64,000 nucleotides of DNA from the NCBI GenBank assembly GCA_048940445.1, contig JBHLON010000004.1, positions 11,466 through 75,465 on the forward strand. Direction: 5' to 3'. Source of the stretch: Promethearchaeota archaeon. GTDB taxonomy: Archaea; Asgardarchaeota; Lokiarchaeia; Sigyniarchaeales; SOKP01. Positions within the stretch are counted from its first letter, which is position 1, and every line of letters begins with the position of its first letter. Below are positions 1,924 through 37,793 of the stretch, piece after piece. Under the pieces are notes generated by a model. The model was given only the letters and a program-made list of their open reading frames with translations. It was not told where the DNA came from and searched no databases. The translations under genes and the position numbers were made by a program.

Positions 1924-4050
1924 ATGTGTGAGAAGATGAAAAAAATAAATGGAAAAGCCTTAATGGTTATTACATTGTTTCTCGCATCAGTAGTCGCAAC
2001 ACCTGTCATGGTTACTGGATCCACTAATACTTTTGATGATGGGATTAATTATAAGCAAGATGGAGAAAGTTTAATTCGAGAATTTCAAAAAGGTTTTGGT
2101 TCATTATTTGGGGGTATGGGTTACGGGGGACAGTTAATAGGTACTGTTTTTCAATTAATGTTATTACAAGTCTTTACTGATTTTGAAAGTACTGAGATAC
2201 TTCCCGGTGTTTATGCTATAAGTGCATCATTAGAGGACTCTATAAATGGGACAAGACCTGCAGCTGGAACAGAATATTATATGGTACCCTTCTCCTATTA
2301 TTTAAGTGCTTCTGATATTGCAAATAATGCTTCTAAATTTGGTTATGCTTATTGTGAAGTCACGAAAACGGGATTATATGATTTAAATTACACCGTAGGA
2401 GTTGGAATAACATTAATAATTTGGGATCATGATGGCTCATTTATTAATGCCCTTACAAAAGTACTAAATTTTTTCCGTACTCTCTCTACATATGAAGGAA
2501 GCTCTGCAGCAATACCTGAGGATTTAATTAAAGAAGGTGTGGAATTAATAACATGGTTTTTAATCCATATTAATGACATATTTACTGGAGATGAACTATT
2601 TATTCTTAACCCAATTACATGGCAAAAATTAGAAATAACTCCGCACTCAGGTTTTAGTATTACAAAAACTATGAAAATCACAGGTTCGGATTGGAGTATT
2701 GATCCTTTAGATCAGGAGATAGATAATCTTACTTTGGGTAGTGATGGGGTTAATGGATCTGCTGTGTTAGATGATTGGAATGCTATCGCTAAAGCAAGAA
2801 AAGATAGTTATATGGAATGGTTATTAACTGAAACTGATAATATCGAGCTTGTTAAGACCGTTTACACTTCTTTTACATTTGATGTTATTCAATTATGGAT
2901 TAAAAATTTTGAAATTCATATTAATGTTGCTGAAGCCTTAAACTTACTAAGCAATAATGATTCTGGTCCAATTAATCCTGCAAGTATCTTTCAAGGATTG
3001 GATATTGAATTTTATTTATTCACTCATCATTTAGCTGGGGCTTTCTTATACGACGATATCATTCCTGATGGAAAAGTTACAGTAGGTGATTATGTCAGAG
3101 TGAACAAAACTAACGGCGATCCAGTTTTGGTGGATGGTGAAGAAGTTTTTGTACCTCATACGAATGAAATTACACATCGGATAATGCTCGGTTCAGTCGG
3201 TAGCTTTACTTTTGAAAAACCACATATTACAGGTACAAATAAATTCTCTTGGGGATTAACTTTGAATCAGGCGCAAATTCGACCAGTTCCAATTGGAGTT
3301 GATTTAGCTTCATATTTAGGAGCTCAACCAGAAAACCTTGCTTATATACACTTTGGATTTACATTTGAACCTAAAGAGATTGAATTACCCACATCTGGTG
3401 GAGGTAAGGTTCCTGTTTTATATGGGGCTCTAAAAGTGGATCAATTATTTGCTCCTTGGAATAATAACAGTTCACCATATGCAAATAATATTATAGATAA
3501 TCTAGATCTTGCAATTTTATATGTATCGAGTGTTTTACATTTCCACTTGACAGTTGACACTCTTAGTGGTGAAGGAAATGAAATTTTAGATCCTTCACAG
3601 GATTATCAAGATGTACAACATAAGTTAACCATTGGAAATTATCTTGGAGAAGATATTGTTGGGAAGCTTGATTTTGTAGATATTGCAGGACCTTATTATG
3701 AATATGGTTCAGAAAGTTCAAGACTTCAAGCCAATTCAACCACAGCAATTTTACCCTTAGCTCTTTTTAAAGCTGAAGTAAATGCGCATGAAACTTATGT
3801 GGGTAATCCTGGAGAAATAGAAACGTTTGCTGCTGATATTCGTCTAAATATTTCCTATAATGTTATGCTTTATGCTGTTTGTTTCCCTGAATTTGAGGAT
3901 GGTACTGGAATATGGAATGATCCTACATTCTCCGTATATATGATTTTTGAGGCACAAGGATTTTGGGCAATAATTCTGTTAGTTGCAGGTGTTGGATTAG
4001 TTGGTGTAGCTACGATTTTAATCAAAAGGCGTAAAGACGCCCGTTTTTAA
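1924..4050 (+). CDS. Large secreted, surface-anchored protein (signal peptide, C-terminal TM anchor with basic tail), probably N-glycosylated
   Basis: N-terminal MKKINGKALMVITLFLASVVATPVMV (the real start is probably ATG 1936). C-terminal hydrophobic helix followed by KRRKDARF. Many N-x-S/T sequons (NGT, NAS, NYT, NLT, NGS, NKT, NST, NIS). Confidence 0.55.
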   Translation: MCEKMKKINGKALMVITLFLASVVATPVMVTGSTNTFDDGINYKQDGESLIREFQKGFGSLFGGMGYGGQLIGTVFQLMLLQVFTDFESTEILPGVYAISASLEDSINGTRPAAGTEYYMVPFSYYLSASDIANNASKFGYAYCEVTKTGLYDLNYTVGVGITLIIWDHDGSFINALTKVLNFFRTLSTYEGSSAAIPEDLIKEGVELITWFLIHINDIFTGDELFILNPITWQKLEITPHSGFSITKTMKITGSDWSIDPLDQEIDNLTLGSDGVNGSAVLDDWNAIAKARKDSYMEWLLTETDNIELVKTVYTSFTFDVIQLWIKNFEIHINVAEALNLLSNNDSGPINPASIFQGLDIEFYLFTHHLAGAFLYDDIIPDGKVTVGDYVRVNKTNGDPVLVDGEEVFVPHTNEITHRIMLGSVGSFTFEKPHITGTNKFSWGLTLNQAQIRPVPIGVDLASYLGAQPENLAYIHFGFTFEPKEIELPTSGGGKVPVLYGALKVDQLFAPWNNNSSPYANNIIDNLDLAILYVSSVLHFHLTVDTLSGEGNEILDPSQDYQDVQHKLTIGNYLGEDIVGKLDFVDIAGPYYEYGSESSRLQANSTTAILPLALFKAEVNAHETYVGNPGEIETFAADIRLNISYNVMLYAVCFPEFEDGTGIWNDPTFSVYMIFEAQGFWAIILLVAGVGLVGVATILIKRRKDARF

Positions 4051-8521: not shown

Positions 8522-8573
8522 AAGTATCTCGAAAATTCCTTTCTTTAAATTATTAATATATTTTAATTAATAG

Positions 8574-8590
8574 AAAATAAATATATATTT
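8574..8590 (+). promoter_or_regulatory. TATA-like box about 26 nt upstream of ATG 8610 (suggests a leaderless or short-leader transcript)
   Basis: AAAATAAATATATATTT. An equivalent AAATATAAAT-like box sits at the same spacing before all three paralogs. Confidence 0.4.
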
Positions 8591-8609
8591 ACCTTGAATA
8601 TCGATCATT

Positions 8610-9065
8610 ATGAATTATTGTCTAGATTTTGGGTCAAAAGTAAAGTCTTTTTGGAAAGTTTGTGCGAAATGTGGTCATTACTTACCTAGAGAAGGAAGAT
8701 TTATAACTACACATAAGAAACCCGAAATTCAAATTAAAAAGGTAGAAACTGCGATCTCAACAGATAACTATCCTAATTTTAAGCCAAAAAAGACTTATGG
8801 TCCTTTTGCTTTAATATTTGGAATGATAGGACTTTTCTTATCACTTGTAATCATAATTATTAGAATTAAGCAAATAATTTTAATTTCTACTGGATTACTC
8901 ATTAATAATTTTTTTATAATTTTCATAGGATTATTAGCGGTTATTTTTGGTATTGTTGGAATTTTCAAAGATGATTCACAAGATATGGCGATAGTAGGAT
9001 TGGTTTTTGGAACATTTATCTTTGTATTATTCTTTTTTAGGGTTGGATTGTATATTAGATCCTAA
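8610..9065 (+). CDS. Zinc-ribbon/TM protein, tandem paralog 1 (first CxxC pair degenerate)
   Basis: MNYCLDFGSKVKSFWKVCAKCGH, versus MNYCPNCGTKVESFWNVCANCGY in paralogs 2 and 3. C-terminal hydrophobic helices with the shared GIFKDDS motif. Confidence 0.6.
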   Translation: MNYCLDFGSKVKSFWKVCAKCGHYLPREGRFITTHKKPEIQIKKVETAISTDNYPNFKPKKTYGPFALIFGMIGLFLSLVIIIIRIKQIILISTGLLINNFFIIFIGLLAVIFGIVGIFKDDSQDMAIVGLVFGTFIFVLFFFRVGLYIRS

Positions 9066-9293
9066 ATCTTCATTTATCCACCACTTCCACCCTGCGATTT
9101 TTCTTTATTAAAAAAATTTATAAGATTTTTTGATATATTTATCAATTTTTGAATAATATTTTAATTCAGAAGTACAATTGATTTTATGATTAATTGCTTT
9201 TATTATACACTAACTTAGAATTGTTTTGAATATTAGAGGGCAAGTACTTGGAGAGTGTTTTTCTTTTTTTTATATAGTTTAATCTTTAGGATA

Positions 9294-9308
9294 AAAAATA
9301 TAAATTAA
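9294..9308 (+). promoter_or_regulatory. TATA-like box about 26 nt upstream of ATG 9327
   Basis: AAAAAATATAAATTA; conserved position relative to the paralog starts. Confidence 0.4.
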
Positions 9309-9323
9309 TGTTGAATATTGTGA

Positions 9324-9794
9324 TTGATGAATTATTGTCCAAATTGTGGAACTAAAGTAGAGTCTTTTTGGAATGTATGTGCTAATTGTGGGTATCGTTT
9401 ATCAAAAGAAGTGAGTTCAACTATTATTGAGAAAAAGCCTCAAAAAGAAGAGATACAAATTGCTACTACTAAAGAAAGTTATAATTATTTTAAACCCCAA
9501 AAAAAACAGGGGCCTTATGCATTAACCTTCGGAATCATTGGTTTTGGTTTATCAATTGTAACTCTAATTCTTAGAATTAATCCTATATTGACTTTTATTG
9601 CTATTTCCTTAGTGATCAATAATTTATTTATATTTGTGATGGGGATTACAGCTGTTATTTTCGGTTTCATTGGAATTTTCAAAGATGATTCAAAAGGAAT
9701 GGCAATAGCAGGATTGAATTTAGGTGCTGGAATTTTTATATTATTTTATATTAGATTTGTAATCTATCTCAGATACTCTATTATTCCCATCTAA
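9324..9794 (+). CDS. Zinc-ribbon/TM protein, tandem paralog 2
   Basis: N-terminal CPNCG...CANCG zinc ribbon, C-terminal TM helices, GIFKDDSKGMAIAG motif. Likely start is ATG 9327. Confidence 0.6.
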   Translation: MMNYCPNCGTKVESFWNVCANCGYRLSKEVSSTIIEKKPQKEEIQIATTKESYNYFKPQKKQGPYALTFGIIGFGLSIVTLILRINPILTFIAISLVINNLFIFVMGITAVIFGFIGIFKDDSKGMAIAGLNLGAGIFILFYIRFVIYLRYSIIPI

Positions 9795-9887
9795 CCGCCG
9801 TATATATAATATAATAGCTTGTAAGGCCGTTTTAACTTATAATCTCAATTTTACTGCTTTTTATGAAAATTAAATAATTTTTAGAAA

Positions 9888-9901
9888 AGAAATATAAATG
9901 T
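9888..9901 (+). promoter_or_regulatory. TATA-like box about 26 nt upstream of ATG 9921
   Basis: GAAATATAAATGTA; conserved position relative to the paralog starts. Confidence 0.4.
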
Positions 9902-9911
9902 ACTTTTTCTA

Positions 9912-10418
9912 GTGATACATATGAATTACTGCCCGAATTGTGGCACTAAAGTAGAGTCCTTTTGGAATGTTTGTGCTAACTGTGGTTATCATATATCAGA
10001 AAGAAGCATCCCTACCCTCATTCAAAAGGAACAAGAAAAGCAGTTTACACAAGTAAGGACAGCAACTCCTAAACCAGTTAAAACTTTAGCTTCAAAACCA
10101 CCTGAAGGCTATTTTGAACCCGAAAGAACATACGGAACTGTTGCTTTAGTCGCAGGAATTGTTGGTTTGGGCCTAACCTTTTTAATTATATTCCTACGAA
10201 TCATTGGGACTTTTACATTACCATTACTCACATTTAATAATGTGATGATAATAATTTTAGCTATTTTGGCAATTATTACAGGCATAATTGGAATTATTAA
10301 AGATAATCCAAAGGTAATGGGCATTATTGGTCTAATCCTGGGAGTTACTGGACTAATAGTATTATTTATAAGAGCAGTGTTTTTTATAGTAAACTTATTT
10401 ATCCCATTACCACTGTAA
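9912..10418 (+). CDS. Zinc-ribbon/TM protein, tandem paralog 3
   Basis: Same N-terminal 23 aa as paralog 2, encoded with many synonymous differences. C-terminal TM helices. Likely start is ATG 9921. Confidence 0.6.
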   Translation: MIHMNYCPNCGTKVESFWNVCANCGYHISERSIPTLIQKEQEKQFTQVRTATPKPVKTLASKPPEGYFEPERTYGTVALVAGIVGLGLTFLIIFLRIIGTFTLPLLTFNNVMIIILAILAIITGIIGIIKDNPKVMGIIGLILGVTGLIVLFIRAVFFIVNLFIPLPL

Positions 10419-17941: not shown

Positions 17942-18487
17942 ATGAACGACAGAGAAGAAAGGAAAGATTTTGTATTTAAGATCACGGTAATTGGAGATGG
18001 AGCTGTTGGTAAGACATCTTTGATCAAGAAATACACTCAAGGATCATTTCAAAAACAATATATTAAAACTTTAGGGGCTCAATTTTCGAAATACGATGAA
18101 AAAGTAGAGGGTAATACGGTAAAGCTCTTTTTCTGGGATATTGCAGGTCAAGCAGAATTCAGCTTTATGAGACCTACATTCTATAAAGGAAGTAAAGCAG
18201 CAATAATCGTATTTTCACACGCTCCAGGGGAAGAAGAGAGTTTTAATAATATAATTGAATGGCATGAAGATATTAAGAAATATTGTGGAAATATCCCAAT
18301 AATATTATTTGGGAATAAAATTGATCTCATTAATTTAGAAGAATTAGATGAGAATAAAGCAGAAAAACTTGTTGAAGATCGTAAATTTATGGGATATTTT
18401 AGAACAAGTGCTAAAACAGGAACAGGTGTATATGAAGCTTTTCAAGCCATCATAAGGAAGTTATATCTTAAATTTAAAGACAAATAA
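17942..18487 (+). CDS. Ras/Rab-like small GTPase
   Basis: GDGAVGKTS, WDIAGQAEF, GNKIDL, SAKTG. No C-terminal Cys. Confidence 0.85.
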   Translation: MNDREERKDFVFKITVIGDGAVGKTSLIKKYTQGSFQKQYIKTLGAQFSKYDEKVEGNTVKLFFWDIAGQAEFSFMRPTFYKGSKAAIIVFSHAPGEEESFNNIIEWHEDIKKYCGNIPIILFGNKIDLINLEELDENKAEKLVEDRKFMGYFRTSAKTGTGVYEAFQAIIRKLYLKFKDK

Positions 18488-29579: not shown

Positions 29580-30128
29580 CTAAACTTTCTCACCATAATT
29601 TCTTAAAATTTGAAAGACCAAGTTTTTAAATGCTTTCTCAACATTCTCCCCATATTTAGCACTTGTTTCAATAAAATCACTTGCTTGTATTTGTTCAGCT
29701 AATTCTTTTCCCTTTTCTTTAGTTACAGCTCTTTGTGCTTCTAAATCAATCTTATTGCCTATTAATACATATGCACCTTCTTTTTTAACATACTTCTTGA
29801 AATCTTTTAGCCATTTTGTTTCTACATTTTCAAAGGTTTGATATCGCGTGATATCATAGACAACTAAAGCCCCAACACATCCCTGAAAATACATTGAGCG
29901 AATTACATTATACTTTTCCTGGCCAGCTAGATCCCACATGATTAAGCGAATTTGAGCATTAATTTCACTCAAATCTACATCTTTACGGACAATATTTGCT
30001 CCTAAAGTTGGCTTATAATCTTCTTGAAAAGATCCTTCAACGAACTGGTTTATTAAAGATGTCTTACCTACTGCTGCATCTCCTAATATTGTGATCTTAA
30101 ATACGTATTCTCGTTCTTCGTTGGTCAT
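29580..30128 (-). CDS. Ras/Rab-like small GTPase
   Basis: GDAAVGKTS, WDLAGQEKY, GNKIDL, SAKYG. No C-terminal Cys. Confidence 0.85.
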   Translation of the reverse strand: MTNEEREYVFKITILGDAAVGKTSLINQFVEGSFQEDYKPTLGANIVRKDVDLSEINAQIRLIMWDLAGQEKYNVIRSMYFQGCVGALVVYDITRYQTFENVETKWLKDFKKYVKKEGAYVLIGNKIDLEAQRAVTKEKGKELAEQIQASDFIETSAKYGENVEKAFKNLVFQILRNYGEKV

Positions 30129-31757: not shown

Positions 31758-33467
31758 TTAATCTTTCACGGTTTCTAAAAGTTCCTCTATTTCAGACTGG
31801 ATAACTTCTGGCTTTTTAGCTTCTTCCCCTTGAATTGCTAATGCACGCTCTAAACGTTCCCGATGCAATGTATTCATTGCACAAAAGGGAACCTCTAATA
31901 CCTTACTATTATCCTCTGGATCAATTACTCCATAGTGAACAAGACATCTACACACTCTATCTAAATCGAAATTATATGAATCTTGAAAATGCATCGAGGA
32001 GATTAGTAGGTTCTTCTCGTGGAAGAACATCCCAGCCGATTGTAGGTTAGGGAATGCAATTAAGCGAGAAAATGCTATTAATGTTTTGCTATCCATAATC
32101 TTTGTAGGATTACGCACGTATCTCATTGCCCCAGCAAAATAGTAAGCTTTCATTAATTGTCGATAACCTAGATTAGTCATATCGTCAACAAATTTACCTA
32201 TTGTAGTTGCAACGCTGCCAAATTGTTCTAGATTGATCCCCTTAAGAAGTCCAGTAGGTTTTGGAATTTCTTGTTTCATAGCCATGTCATATACTTTATT
32301 TGACCAGCTGATAAGTCCTTCTGCATCGAAGTAATTTTCAATGGGTTCATATTCACCGTTTTTGTTTACCACGACGATGGTGGCAAATCCACAATCGGCA
32401 TGGCTAGTTGGGCTCCATTCAGGCACGTCATCAAACCATGCCAATAATCTGGTCATTTTGGCAGTGGTAGCTAATGGATAGAAATTATGTATAGCGTTAT
32501 TGGTATGTTCATTTAGCGCTATTTTCAAATCCGAGGTTGTATAGCGTATATCCATTAAATCCTCAAAACTTATACGTCCACATAGAGATACTGGCTGATA
32601 GATTACTCCTGAAATGACATCATTGTTATCTCTAGCAAAATCCATAATTTTACCAACTTCTTTATCATTTACACCTTTAGCTATAACTGGAACAAGCATT
32701 ACACCATAAAAACCGAGTTTACGGGCATTCTCAATAACTCTTTGTTTTAAAGGCCAGAGATTTACACCTCTTATTTTTTTCCATACTTCAGGGTTATCGG
32801 TTGCATCAAATTGTAAATATACAGCATCCATTCCAGCATCTTTACATTTTTTCATAAATTCAATTGATTTAGCAAATCTAACTCCATTAGTAGTCACCAT
32901 AACTTCGATAAACCCTAACTCTTTACCTTTTCGAATGATTTCGGGTAAATCATCTCTAACAGTTGGTTCACCACCGGAGATTTGTAATAATACTGCTGGT
33001 GTGGGTTTCATAGATCGAAAATGTTCCATAATTCGAACAATTTCATCGTAAGTTGGTTGGACAACATATCCCTTTGCGCTGGCATTAGCAAAACAAATTG
33101 GACATGCCAAATTACATCTATTTGTTATATCAATTAGACATATATTGGGAGCACTTTTATGATTTTCACAAAGTCCACAATCATAAGGGCAACCTTGAGT
33201 ACATTCTTTTATTCCTGAAGATACATATTCAGGTTTTGTTGTATGATTCACTGTTGAGCCAATATCATCAGTAAACGTTTGTTGCCATTTATAATCTTCT
33301 GGATCTATGCTAAGCTTATCTTTAAATTCACCGTGTTCTTTACATTTTTTTCTCATCATTACCCAGTTTTTGCTGTCATCAACGTAAATTTCTGCAGGAA
33401 TCGGCTGTAGGCATTCTGGACAGATACTTGTAGTGCGTCTTATAATTTCTTCTGTCATATTAATCAA
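31758..33467 (-). CDS. Radical SAM enzyme, candidate tetraether lipid synthase (Tes / GDGT-MAS family)
   Basis: Radical SAM CNLACPIC (CxxxCxxC), extra cluster motif CTQGCPYDCGLC, and N-terminal CPEC...CKEH rubredoxin-like motif. Size and multi-cluster layout match what I recall of the MJ0619-type family. The family assignment is from memory. Confidence 0.55.
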   Translation of the reverse strand: MINMTEEIIRRTTSICPECLQPIPAEIYVDDSKNWVMMRKKCKEHGEFKDKLSIDPEDYKWQQTFTDDIGSTVNHTTKPEYVSSGIKECTQGCPYDCGLCENHKSAPNICLIDITNRCNLACPICFANASAKGYVVQPTYDEIVRIMEHFRSMKPTPAVLLQISGGEPTVRDDLPEIIRKGKELGFIEVMVTTNGVRFAKSIEFMKKCKDAGMDAVYLQFDATDNPEVWKKIRGVNLWPLKQRVIENARKLGFYGVMLVPVIAKGVNDKEVGKIMDFARDNNDVISGVIYQPVSLCGRISFEDLMDIRYTTSDLKIALNEHTNNAIHNFYPLATTAKMTRLLAWFDDVPEWSPTSHADCGFATIVVVNKNGEYEPIENYFDAEGLISWSNKVYDMAMKQEIPKPTGLLKGINLEQFGSVATTIGKFVDDMTNLGYRQLMKAYYFAGAMRYVRNPTKIMDSKTLIAFSRLIAFPNLQSAGMFFHEKNLLISSMHFQDSYNFDLDRVCRCLVHYGVIDPEDNSKVLEVPFCAMNTLHRERLERALAIQGEEAKKPEVIQSEIEELLETVKD

Positions 33468-33662: not shown

Positions 33663-34418
33663 ATGATTTATCTAGTATTTCTCGAATTAGACTCTTTAAG
33701 CCAACTTTCTGGAGTTTTCGGAATAATCAGTCTATTTGTAACATTTTTCTACGGAATCTTAGTCTTGATTAAAGCATATCAATTAAAATACAAAATACTT
33801 TATTATTTTTTCTTTGCAATAATTTTTACGATGTCTCCTTGGTATCCTAGCGGATTTGGTTACATTTATTGGCTGATAACTCATGAAGTTATTCCTTATC
33901 CAGTTTATGTATTATTAGGGACATTAGGAGTACCGATTGCTTTATTTGCTTGGTTTCAGATTTATATTCCTGCATTACATCCTAAGCTTAAATATCCCTT
34001 ACTAATAGGCACAGCAATATTATCACTATTATATTACGCGTATGTTTTCTTCTTTTTATTTCTTGCTCCAGGTGCTCCGGTTGATCCATTCATAGGAATA
34101 AAGCAGAGTGCCATAGACATTGAATACAGGGGATTCGCTTTAATCTTCTTAGCTTTTTCACTATTAGTAAGTACTATTACTGGTAATGATTTTTCCATCC
34201 AGTCATTAAGAAGTGAAGAGAAGGAAATTAAATGGAAAGGACGTTTTCTGATAGTTTCATTTAATTTTTTTGCAATTGGTGCTATTGGAGATGGATTCCT
34301 AGAACTTAATCCCTTTACTTTGATATTTTTTAGAGTTTTTATGCTATTATCAAGCACTTTTTATTATATAGGGTTTATTCTACCAAAATGGATGAAAAAA
34401 TTATTGAAATTAGTTTAA
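33663..34418 (+). CDS. Polytopic membrane protein, unknown function
   Basis: 251 aa, about 7 hydrophobic helices. Confidence 0.45.
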   Translation: MIYLVFLELDSLSQLSGVFGIISLFVTFFYGILVLIKAYQLKYKILYYFFFAIIFTMSPWYPSGFGYIYWLITHEVIPYPVYVLLGTLGVPIALFAWFQIYIPALHPKLKYPLLIGTAILSLLYYAYVFFFLFLAPGAPVDPFIGIKQSAIDIEYRGFALIFLAFSLLVSTITGNDFSIQSLRSEEKEIKWKGRFLIVSFNFFAIGAIGDGFLELNPFTLIFFRVFMLLSSTFYYIGFILPKWMKKLLKLV

Positions 34419-34425
34419 ATTAAAA

Positions 34426-34439
34426 TTTTTTTTTTTTTT
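34426..34439 (+). terminator. Long oligo-T tract after 33663..34418
   Basis: T14 run starting 8 nt after the stop codon. Confidence 0.5.
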
Positions 34440-34468
34440 GGTAATCAATACAAACTCAGTTTATAAAA

Positions 34469-34602
34469 GGGAGACTCCTGCCACCAAGACCTAAAAGCAA
34501 GGTCAAAAACAAAATAGGGGGAGGAGGGCGAAATCAGAGTGTGTTTTCACACACTACCAAAAGACAAAAATCCAGGGTGGTAGCAGGAGTCATAACTTAT
34601 AC
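34469..34602. ncRNA. GC-rich structured RNA candidate, unknown class (strand unresolved)
   Basis: Closing helix GACTCCTGCCACC (34473-34485) pairs with GGTGGTAGCAGGAGTC (34576-34591), 13 bp with a 3-nt bulge. Inner hairpins: GACCT/AGGTC (34488-34504) and AGTGTGT-TTTC-ACACACT (34539-34556). Purine tract GGGGGAGGAGGG. About 47% GC by hand count in an AT-rich gap. T8 at 34603-34610 on the + strand. Confidence 0.45.
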
Positions 34603-34910
34603 TTTTTTTTATTCCCTATTTTGATTTTGGTTTGTATTTACTATGCTTTTTAAATTTTTATCTTCTTTATGAATTAATATTGGATACAATTGTATTTTTA
34701 ATTTTTATCTTATGCATTATATAATTGCGGATATATTTAAAATAATTGTTGATACGTCATAAATTTTATACATAAAAGAGAATTTTTGTTAGTTTCTTAA
34801 GTCTTGCATCTCTTATTTTATACGATTTCAAAGAATTTGCAAAAATGATGAACTTAAAATCAAAATTACATTCATAAAGAATAATAAAATGAAATTAATA
34901 TAAACTTATT

Positions 34911-35294
34911 ATGACTTTAAATCACTCATCTGAAAAAAAACAATCACATTTTAAATTATATCTATTTTCAGTTATATTTTCCATAATAGGTTTCATAGTT
35001 TCATGGTTTAATATGCTATTAATATTAGAAAGCTCCAAATACATTGAGGTTCTTGCCTACTTATCAATAATACTTACAACCATGATTCCAGGAGTAATAA
35101 TTGCTTTAAAAAAAAGATATTGGGGATATTCTTATCTTTCGGGATTTTCTATTGCTGGAATTCCTTTTATGATATTGATAGATTTATTTATCGGGGCGTA
35201 TACGTGTATTACTACTATTTTTATATTTGCTATTTTATGGTTAATATTTTGGAAAGCTTGGCGTTCTCTTGATTCAATAAAGATAGAAGAATAA
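34911..35294 (+). CDS. Small membrane protein (about 4 TM)
   Basis: 127 aa, four hydrophobic helices, no motif recognised. Lacks CrcB-like motifs. Confidence 0.4.
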   Translation: MTLNHSSEKKQSHFKLYLFSVIFSIIGFIVSWFNMLLILESSKYIEVLAYLSIILTTMIPGVIIALKKRYWGYSYLSGFSIAGIPFMILIDLFIGAYTCITTIFIFAILWLIFWKAWRSLDSIKIEE

Positions 35295-36022: not shown

Positions 36023-36517
36023 ATGTCCTTTAATTCTAATGATAATTCTGAGAAAGATAATTTTGGTTTTAAGATCAGAAAAATAAACCAAAGTGATTGC
36101 TATTTTCATGCAATTTACTTTTTAGATAATATAACAGGATCTTTACTTATAAGCAAGCAATATTCGGAGAATACAAAAACCTCATCTAACGGAGATTTAA
36201 TTAGTGGTTTCTTAAATGCTCTAAATTTGTTTATAAAAGAAATAAGGCCAGGCGAAACAGATGAGGAAATTCAAGAAATTAATTTTAGAGAAACAAGAAT
36301 TTTATATGAGCGATTAGGGCGTCTTTCTGTAATCGCAATAACCAAAAAGTTAAATTTGAAATTTGAAAGACATTTGTTGCATTATATTATAAATGACTTT
36401 TATAGTCGATATGAAAGTTCAATTAATCATTTTAATGGTATAATTGAACCTTCCATTTTAAATTATGAAAAGAAACTAGAAATGCTTAATTATTACAATT
36501 CTCACTTTGAACTATAA
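36023..36517 (+). CDS. Small alpha/beta protein, longin/roadblock-like fold candidate (paralog of 15419..15883)
   Basis: AIYFLDNITGSLLISKQY...GDLISGFLNALNLFIKEI...EINFRETRILYERLGRLSVIAITKK...; collinear with 15419..15883. Confidence 0.4.
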   Translation: MSFNSNDNSEKDNFGFKIRKINQSDCYFHAIYFLDNITGSLLISKQYSENTKTSSNGDLISGFLNALNLFIKEIRPGETDEEIQEINFRETRILYERLGRLSVIAITKKLNLKFERHLLHYIINDFYSRYESSINHFNGIIEPSILNYEKKLEMLNYYNSHFEL

Positions 36518-36533
36518 TTCAAACAATAAGATT

Positions 36534-37793
36534 TTAGATTTCATCTTTCTTCTTTTTCTCCTCGATTTCTTTTACCTTATCTTCTATCTTTTCACTTATA
36601 CCTTGGATATCAGGTTTAATTTGCATTCTTTTGGTATCTTCTTCTCGCTGTTTTTCCCGTATAAATGCTTTTTCGCTAATAGATTTCTCAATAGCCTGCC
36701 CTGCCTGCTCTAAATCTGGTTTAATCCTTTTTAATTCTTCTCTGGTTTCTCGTTGTTTATCTAATCTAAATGCTTTCTCATCAACAGATTGACTTATAGC
36801 CTCTCCTGTTTTCTCTATATCTGGTTTAAGTGTTTTCATTTTTTGCGTTGCTTCGCGCTGTAGATCAATCCGAAAGGCTTTTTCACCAACACTTTTCTCA
36901 ATAGCTTCTCCGACTTTTCTAAAATTAGGCTTTAATTCCAATCGTTTAGTATCTTCCTCTCGCTGTTTTTCCCGTATAAATGCTTTTTCGCTAATAGATT
37001 TCTCAATAGCCTGCCCTGCCTGCTCTAAATCTGGTTTAATCCTTTTTAATTCTTCTCTGGTTTCTCGTTGTTTATCTAATCTAAATGCTTTCTCATCAAC
37101 AGATTGACTTATAGCCTCTCCTGTTTTCTCTATATCTGGTTTAAGTGTTTTCATTTTTTGCGTTGCTTCGCGCTGTAGATCAATCCGAAAGGCTTTTTCA
37201 CCAACACTTTTCTCAATAGCTTCTCCTACTTTTCTAAAATTAGGTCTTAATTCCATTCGTTTAGTATCTTCCTCTCGCTGTTTTTCCCGTATAAATGCTT
37301 TTTCGCTTATAGATTTCTCAATAGCTTGTTCTATTTGTTCTTTATTAGGTTTTACTCCAAGCCTATGTGCATCAATTTCTTTTTTTTTTTCGATTAAGAA
37401 AGCCTTTTGATCAACTGATTTACTTATTGCTTCAGTGGTCTTTTCTAAATCTGGCTTAATCTTTAATCTTAGAGCATCACTTTCTTTTTTCTTTTCGATC
37501 ATGAATACTTTTTGATTAACAGATTTACTTATTGCTTCTCCAGTACTTTTAATATCCGGTCTAAGTTCTAATCTCTTCTTATCCTGTTCCCGTCGTTTTT
37601 CTCTTATAAAGCTTTTTTCTGAAATTAAATTTGAAATCAATTTTTGACTTTCTTCAAAGGCTTTTTTTCTCTGTTCTTCAAATTTTCTGAGATATTCTTC
37701 TCTCTCTTCTTTTTCTTTCTTATAAAGTTCATCGACGATCTTCTTTTGCTTTTCGATCTCTTCAGGTGTTAAAGGTTTTTCATTTTCTTCCAA
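36534..37793 (-). CDS. Charged helical repeat protein (ten 35-aa Pro-punctuated repeats)
   Basis: Repeats of the form [LIV][KR]P[DN]xxxxGEAIxKSVxEKAFxIxKQRExxxxxxx, flanked by Glu/Lys-rich coiled-coil-like termini. No family recognised. Confidence 0.6.
   Translation of the reverse strand: MEENEKPLTPEEIEKQKKIVDELYKKEKEEREEYLRKFEEQRKKAFEESQKLISNLISEKSFIREKRREQDKKRLELRPDIKSTGEAISKSVNQKVFMIEKKKESDALRLKIKPDLEKTTEAISKSVDQKAFLIEKKKEIDAHRLGVKPNKEQIEQAIEKSISEKAFIREKQREEDTKRMELRPNFRKVGEAIEKSVGEKAFRIDLQREATQKMKTLKPDIEKTGEAISQSVDEKAFRLDKQRETREELKRIKPDLEQAGQAIEKSISEKAFIREKQREEDTKRLELKPNFRKVGEAIEKSVGEKAFRIDLQREATQKMKTLKPDIEKTGEAISQSVDEKAFRLDKQRETREELKRIKPDLEQAGQAIEKSISEKAFIREKQREEDTKRMQIKPDIQGISEKIEDKVKEIEEKKKKDEI
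36636..37325. repeat. Tandem 315-bp direct repeat (about 2.2 copies, near identical) inside the repeat-protein gene
   Basis: CGCTGTTTTTCCCGTATAAATGC recurs at 36646, 36961 and 37276 (period 315 = 3 x 35 codons). Units 36646-36960 and 36961-37275 differ at about 4 positions by eye. Confidence 0.9.

Follow-up and report, generated by a model that had tools for sequence, protein, structure and literature searches.

A structured RNA element and its family

Between a 251-aa open reading frame (ORF) that ends at 34418 and a 127-aa one that starts at 34911, the 64,000-nucleotide stretch of Promethearchaeota contig JBHLON010000004.1 analysed here (the window) holds a 492-nt spacer, in agreement with the gap of about 490 nt given by an earlier reading made without database searches (the sequence-only reading). 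In this spacer, at 34465-34629, a GC-rich island folds into a 13-bp closing helix that encloses two hairpins. The element represents a previously uncatalogued structured non-coding RNA (ncRNA) of Asgard (Lokiarchaeia-like) archaea, which is widely conserved, supported by covariation and sharply bounded in its conservation.

The individual parts described by the sequence-only reading were all recovered. The closing helix, P1, joins 34473-34485 with 34576-34591 and carries a 3-nt GTA bulge, the first hairpin (GACCT/AGGTC, 34488-34504) is capped by a 7-nt loop and the second (AGTGTGT/ACACACT, 34538-34555) by a TTTC loop. The G tract, GGGGGAGGAGGG, lies at 34517-34528 and occurs once in the window, and the T8 run (34603-34610) begins 11 nt past the helix. 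The island also stood out in composition, with a GC fraction of 0.43-0.44 over 120-nt segments compared to 0.17-0.21 in the flanking spacer; the 47% counted by hand was a little too high. The G tract is however not fully exposed as had been proposed, as its 5' end and the preceding A-rich linker (34510-34519) pair with CCCTATTTTG at 34614-34623, and because of this downstream pairing the functional unit extends beyond the originally delimited 34469-34602, to approximately 34465-34629. Folding z-scores were -3.5 for the plus strand and -5.2 for the minus strand, with none of 200 dinucleotide shuffles being as stable on either strand, and a minus-strand RNA of approximately 163 nt (about 34627-34465) folds at z = -4.3.

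Three helices, complemented by an accessory long-range helix (P4), form the structure of the RNA. In an alignment of 92 members, all 20 modelled pairs (nine in P1, five in the first hairpin and six in the second) change on both sides. Standard pairs occupy 93.4% of the cells in this alignment, against 31-42% when the partners are slid by 1-3 columns, and 0 of 500 column shuffles reached the observed pairing values. In P1, GACTCC/GGAGTC of the window is replaced by GGTCCC/GGGACC, GCCTCC/GGAGGC or GTTTCC/GGAAAC, the first hairpin alternates between GACCT/AGGTC (window), GACGC/GCGTC, GATGC/GCATC and GGAGC/GCTCC, and the second between AGTGTGT/ACACACT (window), AGTGTAA/TTACACT and GTGCGC/GCGCAC. 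The joining strands are nearly invariant and the loops free to vary. Covariation in relatives, which the sequence-only reading had itself put forward as the test of its candidate, was strongly positive.

P4 arises from the A-rich linker and the first Gs of the tract (34504-34519), which are complementary to CCCTATTTTG-A-TTTTG at 34614-34629 (-19 kcal/mol), and it is pseudoknotted with P1. Counted over the whole window, the motif CCTATTTT is about as frequent as expected (8 occurrences, 7.8 expected), but 26 of the 92 members have it at a distance of 10-60 nt downstream of the element, including paralogues at unrelated loci. P4 covaries from C-G to U-A (AAACAAAATAGG with CCTATTTTG, AAATAAAATAGG with CCTATTTTAT), the sole exceptions being C.A. 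Many members nevertheless lack P4 or retain weak A-U pairing only, and P4 was therefore treated as accessory. The minimum-free-energy fold of the minus strand has the conserved 3' UCCCU as partner of the 5' AGGGA (34465-34477 with 34613-34617), in place of CCCUAU, the internal sequence that AGGGA would meet in P4. The two pairings are mutually exclusive and could represent a conformational switch.

The searches yielded at least about 130 distinct homologues. All copies in named genome records are from archaea, mostly with Asgard labels, while the metagenome contigs have no taxon label. A first scan, in which the 17-mer GGGGGAGGAGGGCGAAA was searched in a single genome of each species, returned at least about 50 matches with the whole element in archaeal records, again mostly Asgard-labelled, corresponding to 47 distinct full-length copies. 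Bacterial homologues were considered and dismissed, the at least about 70 non-archaeal matches to the 17-mer being mostly due to chance and none resembling the rest of the element. A second scan exploited metagenomes and a different block, AAAAGACAAAAATCCAGG, as query, and the covariance model R1, built from the first-scan members, recognised 92 further members among the first 100 metagenome loci. Conversely, AAAAGACAAAAATCCAGG is unchanged in 47 of 47 genome-scan members, which had been chosen by a different pattern.

Homologues of the neighbouring 251-aa membrane protein all stem from Asgard metagenome-assembled genomes (labelled Promethearchaeota, Lokiarchaeota and similar). Between syntenic relatives the DNA of the element is 88-94% identical, as compared to 74-82% for the 251-aa protein, and the similarity collapses within a few bases of the element edges. 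Among relatives of the 251-aa gene, the four most distant ones (L012-L020) are no longer syntenic and have no element nearby. The phylum labels in NCBI titles conflict, as L055 (Odinarchaeota) and L120 (Promethearchaeota) hold nearly identical copies, and the labels of other JBHL... records are inconsistent as well. Because of these inconsistent labels, an apparent spread to Hod-, Hermod-, Thor- and Odinarchaeota is not to be trusted at face value.

Some genomes carry two or three copies. Pairs in the same orientation are located 2-5 kb apart on one contig in L040 (3149-3285 and 7881-8000) and L246 (approximately 510-640 and 2480-2620). Neither pattern search, repeat finder nor covariance model detected a second copy in the window. 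We also observed minimal variants (L228, 1235-1322; L257, approximately 3960-4030), which consist of one 12-bp hairpin with the invariant 18-mer in its loop, and re-scaffolded variants (L240, approximately 2760-2890; L248, approximately 1040-1170), where the 18-mer is placed inside a different scaffold of nested helices beginning with TTGGCCAAG. These may represent separate subfamilies.

The proposal of a novel structured ncRNA outside the known classes was upheld also by comparison with established families. Rfam 15 yielded no gathering-level match in the window, and a permissive scan of 34350-34950 returned noise only (14-19 bits, against gathering scores of 39-64), so that the Rfam check suggested by the sequence-only reading was negative at both thresholds. 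Fifteen further members similarly lacked any Rfam 15 match over the element at E<=5, and no description of the RNA was found in the literature searched. The classes that had been set aside by eye remained excluded: ARAGORN detected no tRNA or tmRNA genes in the window; RUGAUGA occurs on neither strand of the element, and AUGA before P1 and an internal CUGA on the minus strand do not face each other as C/D boxes would; and ACA is present at neither inferred 3' end, nor was there an Rfam H/ACA match.

Strand, promoter-like motifs and ends

The RNA is most probably made from the minus strand. Across all helices, cells that read A.C or C.A on the plus strand (G.U on the minus strand) outnumber G.U cells by 61 to 31. 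In the two short hairpins, which leave no room for a mismatch, the ratio is 21 to 3, the three being confined to terminal pairs, and many of these A.C cells stem from T-to-C changes, contrary to the AT mutational pressure. The C.A exceptions in P4 were counted towards the same strand. Of 67 4-nt loops of the second hairpin, 16 are of the GNRA type on the minus strand (GAAA in the window) but only 2 of 67 on the plus strand, 83 of 104 members reach a lower minimum free energy on the minus strand, and flanking ORFs outside the two syntenic contexts described below are biased to it (108 vs 65). Together with a BRE/TATA-like motif (B recognition element and TATA box), it is these wobble, loop, energy and orientation data that favour the minus strand. 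Accordingly, the T8 run, which the sequence-only reading noted on the plus strand while leaving the strand of the RNA open, and which would suggest a terminator there, would instead be an A8 spacer in the 5' part of the RNA.

Read in this direction, the RNA likely begins with the 5' strand of P4 (CAAAAUCAAAAUAGGG, 34614-34629), complementary to 34504-34519, followed by an A-rich spacer read from the sequence (AAUAAAAAAAAGUAUAAGUUAU, 34592-34613), which contains the T8 run, and by the P1 5' strand (GACUCCUGC-UAC-CACC, 34576-34591), where all nine modelled pairs change on both sides. Next comes the family core, an invariant U-rich junction (CCCUGGAUUUUUGUCUUUUGGU, 34556-34577) with resemblance to an Sm site (GAUUUUUG), and then the hairpin AGUGUGU-GAAA-ACACACU (34538-34555), with compensatory changes in six modelled pairs. 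A pyrimidine-rich junction (CUGAUUUCGCCCUCCUCCCCCUAUUUUGUUUUU, 34505-34537), comprising the C tract (34517-34528) and the P4 3' strand (34504-34520), leads to the hairpin GACCU-UGCUUUU-AGGUC (34488-34504), with five compensatory pairs, and to the P1 3' strand (GGUGGCAGGAGUC, 34473-34485), which covaries as its partner does. The conserved 3' tail (UCCCUUUU, 34465-34472; family consensus WCCYUUU) marks the probable 3' end, where transcription would terminate: among 109 members CC is conserved to 83-89% and UUU to 81-86%, and conservation stops abruptly thereafter.

The BRE/TATA-like motif, AAGATAAAAATTTAAA, is located at 34649-34664 on the minus strand, with a purine-rich BRE-like part followed by a TATA-like one. 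The window contains more matches to this motif than expected (8 against 2.7), the present copy being a perfect one, and similar motifs elsewhere in the window are found 31-45 nt upstream of ORF starts. Downstream of the copy at 34649-34664 the minus strand holds the RNA and no ORF. In about a dozen P4-bearing close relatives, the clade of the window, the motif lies approximately 30-40 nt upstream of AAAAUAGG, the core of the P4 5' strand, and approximately 19-25 nt from the start of that strand; the start site predicted 22-25 nt past the TATA box falls within it (34614-34629). A promoter running from 34664 to 34649 would thus drive minus-strand transcription, with a transcript from about 34627 to 34465 that would end at CCYUUU just past the closing helix. 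An upstream copy of the motif (AAGATAAAAATTAAAA, 34696-34711, minus strand) is placed in direct repeat D10 (34648-34694 and 34695-34741, within 34648-34760) and aligns with a block of approximately 55 nt conserved in all main-context loci. This copy, whose membership in the RNA gene is uncertain, may be a tandem promoter or part of the regulatory sequence of the 127-aa gene, which is divergently oriented.

AUG directly precedes P1 on the minus strand in approximately 75% of the members. In the window it opens a 19-codon frame (34576-34594; 14 codons in other clades) through the invariant block. A small ORF was rejected here, considering that changes in P1 length shift the frame between lineages and that the invariant block shows no synonymous change, and the frame is probably not coding.

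Several observations weigh against a minus-strand gene with its own promoter, and some of them also favour the same structured RNA being made from the plus strand, where it would start near U/AAAGGG and end in a T-rich tract. A position-weight scan revealed no TATA box at a fixed distance family-wide on either strand, the promoter spacing described above holds only in the clade of the window, and the orientation preference of the motif in the window is modest (15 vs 9). The minus-strand RNA would contain internal U5 and U4 tracts, potential terminators of the archaeal polymerase. P1 shows no wobble asymmetry (about 22 G.U and 27 A.C cells), as expected, however, if a long helix tolerates one mismatch. 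Moreover, the unpaired regions are A-rich when read on the plus strand, as they typically are in structured RNAs, a conserved AAAGG immediately precedes P1, with TATA-like sequences approximately 22-28 nt upstream of it in many members as judged by eye, and the downstream flank is T-rich (52% T), having T4 within 15 nt in 68% of members and T5 within 30 nt in 57%. The T-rich flank can on the other hand also be explained as the partner of the A-rich junction, in P4 and its weaker A-U versions, no positional TATA peak accompanies the plus-strand start, and hairpin wobbles (including the T-to-C changes), GNRA loops, folding energies and neighbour orientation all point the other way. We therefore regard a plus-strand RNA as unlikely, and just as unlikely its functional extension, in which the A-rich junctions and an exposed GGGGGAGGAGGG would bind a protein or a pyrimidine-rich RNA such as the 16S rRNA 3' end. 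For the minus-strand gene, an own promoter and a U-tract end are well supported, though like strand and transcription itself they are inferred.

Genomic context and neighbouring genes

The arrangement of the window is shared by at least about 45 loci: a gene for a Tes-like radical SAM protein on the opposite strand, sometimes the 251-aa gene, and then the RNA, followed by a spacer of 220-310 nt, a gene for a membrane protein of approximately 130 aa and three more conserved genes. The 130-aa gene has a conserved TATA-containing block of its own between itself and the RNA. A second context recurs in seven loci, with a helix-hairpin-helix protein of approximately 600 aa, an 86-aa zinc-ribbon protein and a Ski2-like helicase. 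The other loci, at least about 95, all differ from one another, and their neighbouring genes have no family or function in common. A functional link to the neighbours was explored using Pfam and NCBIfam and abandoned, as these genes encode the Tes-like radical SAM protein, helix-hairpin-helix proteins and many unannotated products, without a theme or anything RNA-related. Such heterogeneous contexts argue for a family of stand-alone small RNA genes and against a riboswitch or a mobile element. Indeed, the data fit a small multigene family with several paralogues per genome.

An alternative is a cis-acting leader, a riboswitch or attenuator acting from the plus strand on the ~130-aa membrane protein gene, or from the minus strand on the Tes-like gene or whichever gene comes next. 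Synteny with the 130-aa gene is maintained in the at least about 45 loci and survives insertion of a gene upstream of the element in L007; in the other contexts the minus-strand neighbour is co-oriented in 61 cases vs 32, its start sometimes being only 30-70 nt away; the three-way junction with highly conserved joining strands and with P1 followed by a U tract is seen in many riboswitches; and P4 and the alternative AGGGA-UCCCU pairing could act as the switch. However, the downstream genes share neither function nor family across at least about 100 contexts, the next start codon is from about 20 to more than 600 nt away (220-340 nt in the main context), and a constant position upstream of related same-strand genes was not found among the two recurrent and at least about 95 other contexts. 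Furthermore, an opposite-strand gene separates the element from the Tes-like gene in the clade of the window, the TATA-containing block of the 130-aa gene intervenes on the other side, and the plus-side gene faces the other way in several loci. Thus, a leader is improbable. Far less credible still is that the element acts as DNA, either as a miniature inverted-repeat transposable element (MITE) with P1 as its terminal inverted repeats or as a site bound by proteins, for instance in recombination or as a replication-origin box. The 13-bp terminal inverted repeats and the dispersal over many genomic contexts would agree with this, as would the motif TCCAGGGTGG, which we take to be loosely reminiscent of archaeal origin recognition boxes. 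Yet inverted repeats and internal hairpins covary while the loops vary freely, as is characteristic of a single strand that folds, wobbles are distributed asymmetrically between the strands, and there is one copy only in the window. Orthologous copies hold their syntenic position across divergent species and are not near-identical recent insertions; covarying repeats and old, syntenic copies argue against a MITE in particular. Conserved terminal inverted repeats and near-identical dispersed copies, as in a MITE or transposon end, were not found, target-site duplications having had no systematic search.

The block of approximately 55 nt between the RNA and the 130-aa gene, AAATTTTTATCTTA...TATAT(C/G)ATTA...YTTATAAAT, is kept in all main-context loci and is probably a divergent promoter or a regulator-binding region. 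Its first part is duplicated 47 nt nearer the RNA in the clade of the window. On the other side, the 569-aa radical SAM protein (31758-33467, minus strand) scores 429 bits against the NCBIfam model of the tetraether lipid synthase Tes, for which the cut-off is 450; conservation of a Tes-like enzyme in Asgard genomes is relevant to what membrane lipids these archaea have. The conserved cluster (36023-36517 in the window, and syntenic loci L003-L011) includes a small GTPase of the Arf/Ras/Roc type and a 164-aa protein that appears roadblock- or longin-like by eye, a likeness without a supporting Pfam or NCBIfam match. Six tandem units of 105 nt (35 aa) occupy 36609-37538, inside a 419-aa minus-strand ORF (36534-37793) whose orthologs range from approximately 420 to 490 aa among relatives. 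Further away, a 114-nt inverted repeat of 75% complementarity has its arms 11.9 kb apart (17965-18078 and 29998-30111), and three diverged direct repeats (D2 and D3, 8568-10001), spaced by approximately 600-715 nt, resemble tandem paralogous genes of approximately 150-165 aa that share a zinc-ribbon motif of the CPNCG type.

An invariant U-rich strand and its possible function

On the minus strand, the most conserved part of the RNA is CCCUGGAUUUUUGUCUUUUGG, immediately 3' of the P1 5' strand, in a U-rich single strand of 19-21 nt. It is CCCUGGAUUUUUGUCUUUUGG alone that is retained in the minimal bare-hairpin variants (L228 and L257) and in those with a different scaffold (L240 and L248), and the persistence of the U-rich strand in a bare hairpin suggests a specific protein partner. 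The second junction is C-rich, CGCCCUCCUCCCCC, and largely conserved, with a centre that varies in some paralogues; main-context orthologues keep the tract.

For this pyrimidine-rich tract and its G-rich complement, other roles were assessed and rejected. The SD-like or anti-SD-like (Shine-Dalgarno) character seen by the sequence-only reading is weak: only 5 of 54 ORFs have an SD-like motif ahead of them in the window, and the tract is variable across the wider family and from one paralogue to another, speaking against an anti-SD seed or translational blocking at ribosome-binding sites. A plus-strand G-quadruplex is incompatible with variants such as AGGATAAGTAGGGCAA, which cannot hold four G runs, as well as with the strand evidence. 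Neither is the tract the freely variable segment of a guide RNA between conserved boxes, because the sequence GGGG(G/A)AGGAGGG is for the most part kept, also where the contexts are unrelated.

We propose, as an evenly balanced proposition, that the locus stands alone as the gene of a structured small RNA, approximately 125-165 nt long, that is transcribed from the minus strand and works in trans as the RNA component of a ribonucleoprotein (RNP). As the covariation shows, the RNA folds into a three-way junction of P1 and the two hairpins, and in the lineage of the window its 5' leader pairs with the junction to form P4, pseudoknotted with P1. The junction displays two pyrimidine-rich single strands, CCCUGGAUUUUUGUCUUUUGG and CGCCCUCCUCCCCC. 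Of these, the invariant U-rich strand would serve as a protein-binding platform, most plausibly for a ring of Sm-like archaeal proteins (SmAPs), and the less conserved C-rich strand would be available for pairing with purine-rich partners. Binding of such a ring is put forward as a hypothesis only, on grounds of sequence resemblance.

The Sm-site consensus is RAU4-6GR, sited between helices. Provided that the minus strand is the correct one, GAUUUUUG fits RAU5G between helices, and GGAUUUUUGUC is invariant between P1 and hairpin. The tract is comparable to the Sm sites of U2 (GAUUUUUGG), U4 (AAUUUUUGA) and U7 (AAUUUGUCUAG), and there are further likenesses to the Sm-class small nuclear RNAs (snRNAs; U2, U4, U5, U7) and to Sm/Lsm RNAs, including a length of approximately 120-160 nt, a single-stranded R-A-U5-G between helices and a U-rich 3' end. 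Moreover, the archaeal ancestors of the Sm/Lsm proteins are encoded in the host lineage; Sm/Lsm rings derive from SmAPs, for which RNA partners are poorly known (PMC9887622). On the other side, the Sm-like motif ends in GU and not in G-purine, no snRNA covariance model matches either strand even at E<=10, all functional boxes of snRNAs are lacking and the host has no spliceosome. We therefore consider it quite unlikely, if worth stating, that the family is an Asgard Sm-site small-RNA family that assembles with SmAP rings, as a prokaryotic counterpart, and possibly a forerunner, of the eukaryotic Sm/Lsm RNPs.

Likeness to other classes is similarly partial. Y RNAs, the Ro60 partners of eukaryotes and some bacteria, are approximately 100-160 nt long and share a long bulged stem formed from near-end regions, an internal region that is large and pyrimidine-rich, a short U tail at the 3' end and several paralogues per genome; however, no match was obtained with RF00019 or the bacterial Y-like models, the element lacks the conserved stem sequence for Ro binding and no Ro60/TROVE gene was found among the clustered flanking ORFs. 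The C-rich bacterial RNAs RsaE/RoxS, which pair with purine-rich ribosome-binding sites, resemble it in presenting unpaired CCCUCCUCCCCC, CCCUGG and CCCUUU on a compact structure and in being stand-alone genes with own promoter and U-tract end, but here the host is archaeal, there is no homology, SD motifs are rare, and the most conserved part is not the C tract but the U-rich element. Three-way-junction riboswitches (purine, TPP) likewise have a P1 around two hairpins, highly conserved joining strands and long-range tertiary or pseudoknot pairing, whereas the element lacks a consistent downstream gene class or distance and an Rfam riboswitch match, and its joining strands are unusually long (22 and approximately 32 nt) and U/C-rich. 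Finally, 5S rRNA is a three-way junction of approximately 120 nt closed by end pairing, in contrast to which the element does not match RF00001, has simple hairpin arms of 5-7 bp devoid of loop E and loop B, and is not in an rRNA operon context. With membership failing for every known class that could be tested, the RNA was filed as a new class.

No known lineage is closer to eukaryotes than the Asgard archaea, yet apart from rRNA, tRNA and a few universal RNAs their ncRNAs have, to our knowledge, hardly been explored. Aggregated, at least about 130 members, compensatory change at every modelled pair, an extra covarying helix and the lack of a match in Rfam 15 or the literature searched support the family described here, which ranks with the best-founded finds of computational RNA discovery. 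Whatever its function, it supplies a covariance model for the annotation of Asgard genomes and a target for RNA-seq, pull-down and structural work. If the Sm-site reading is correct, the poorly characterised SmAPs would gain a defined and conserved RNA partner, and with a Sm-like ring as the partner, the origin of Sm/Lsm ribonucleoproteins would become testable in cultured Lokiarchaeia.

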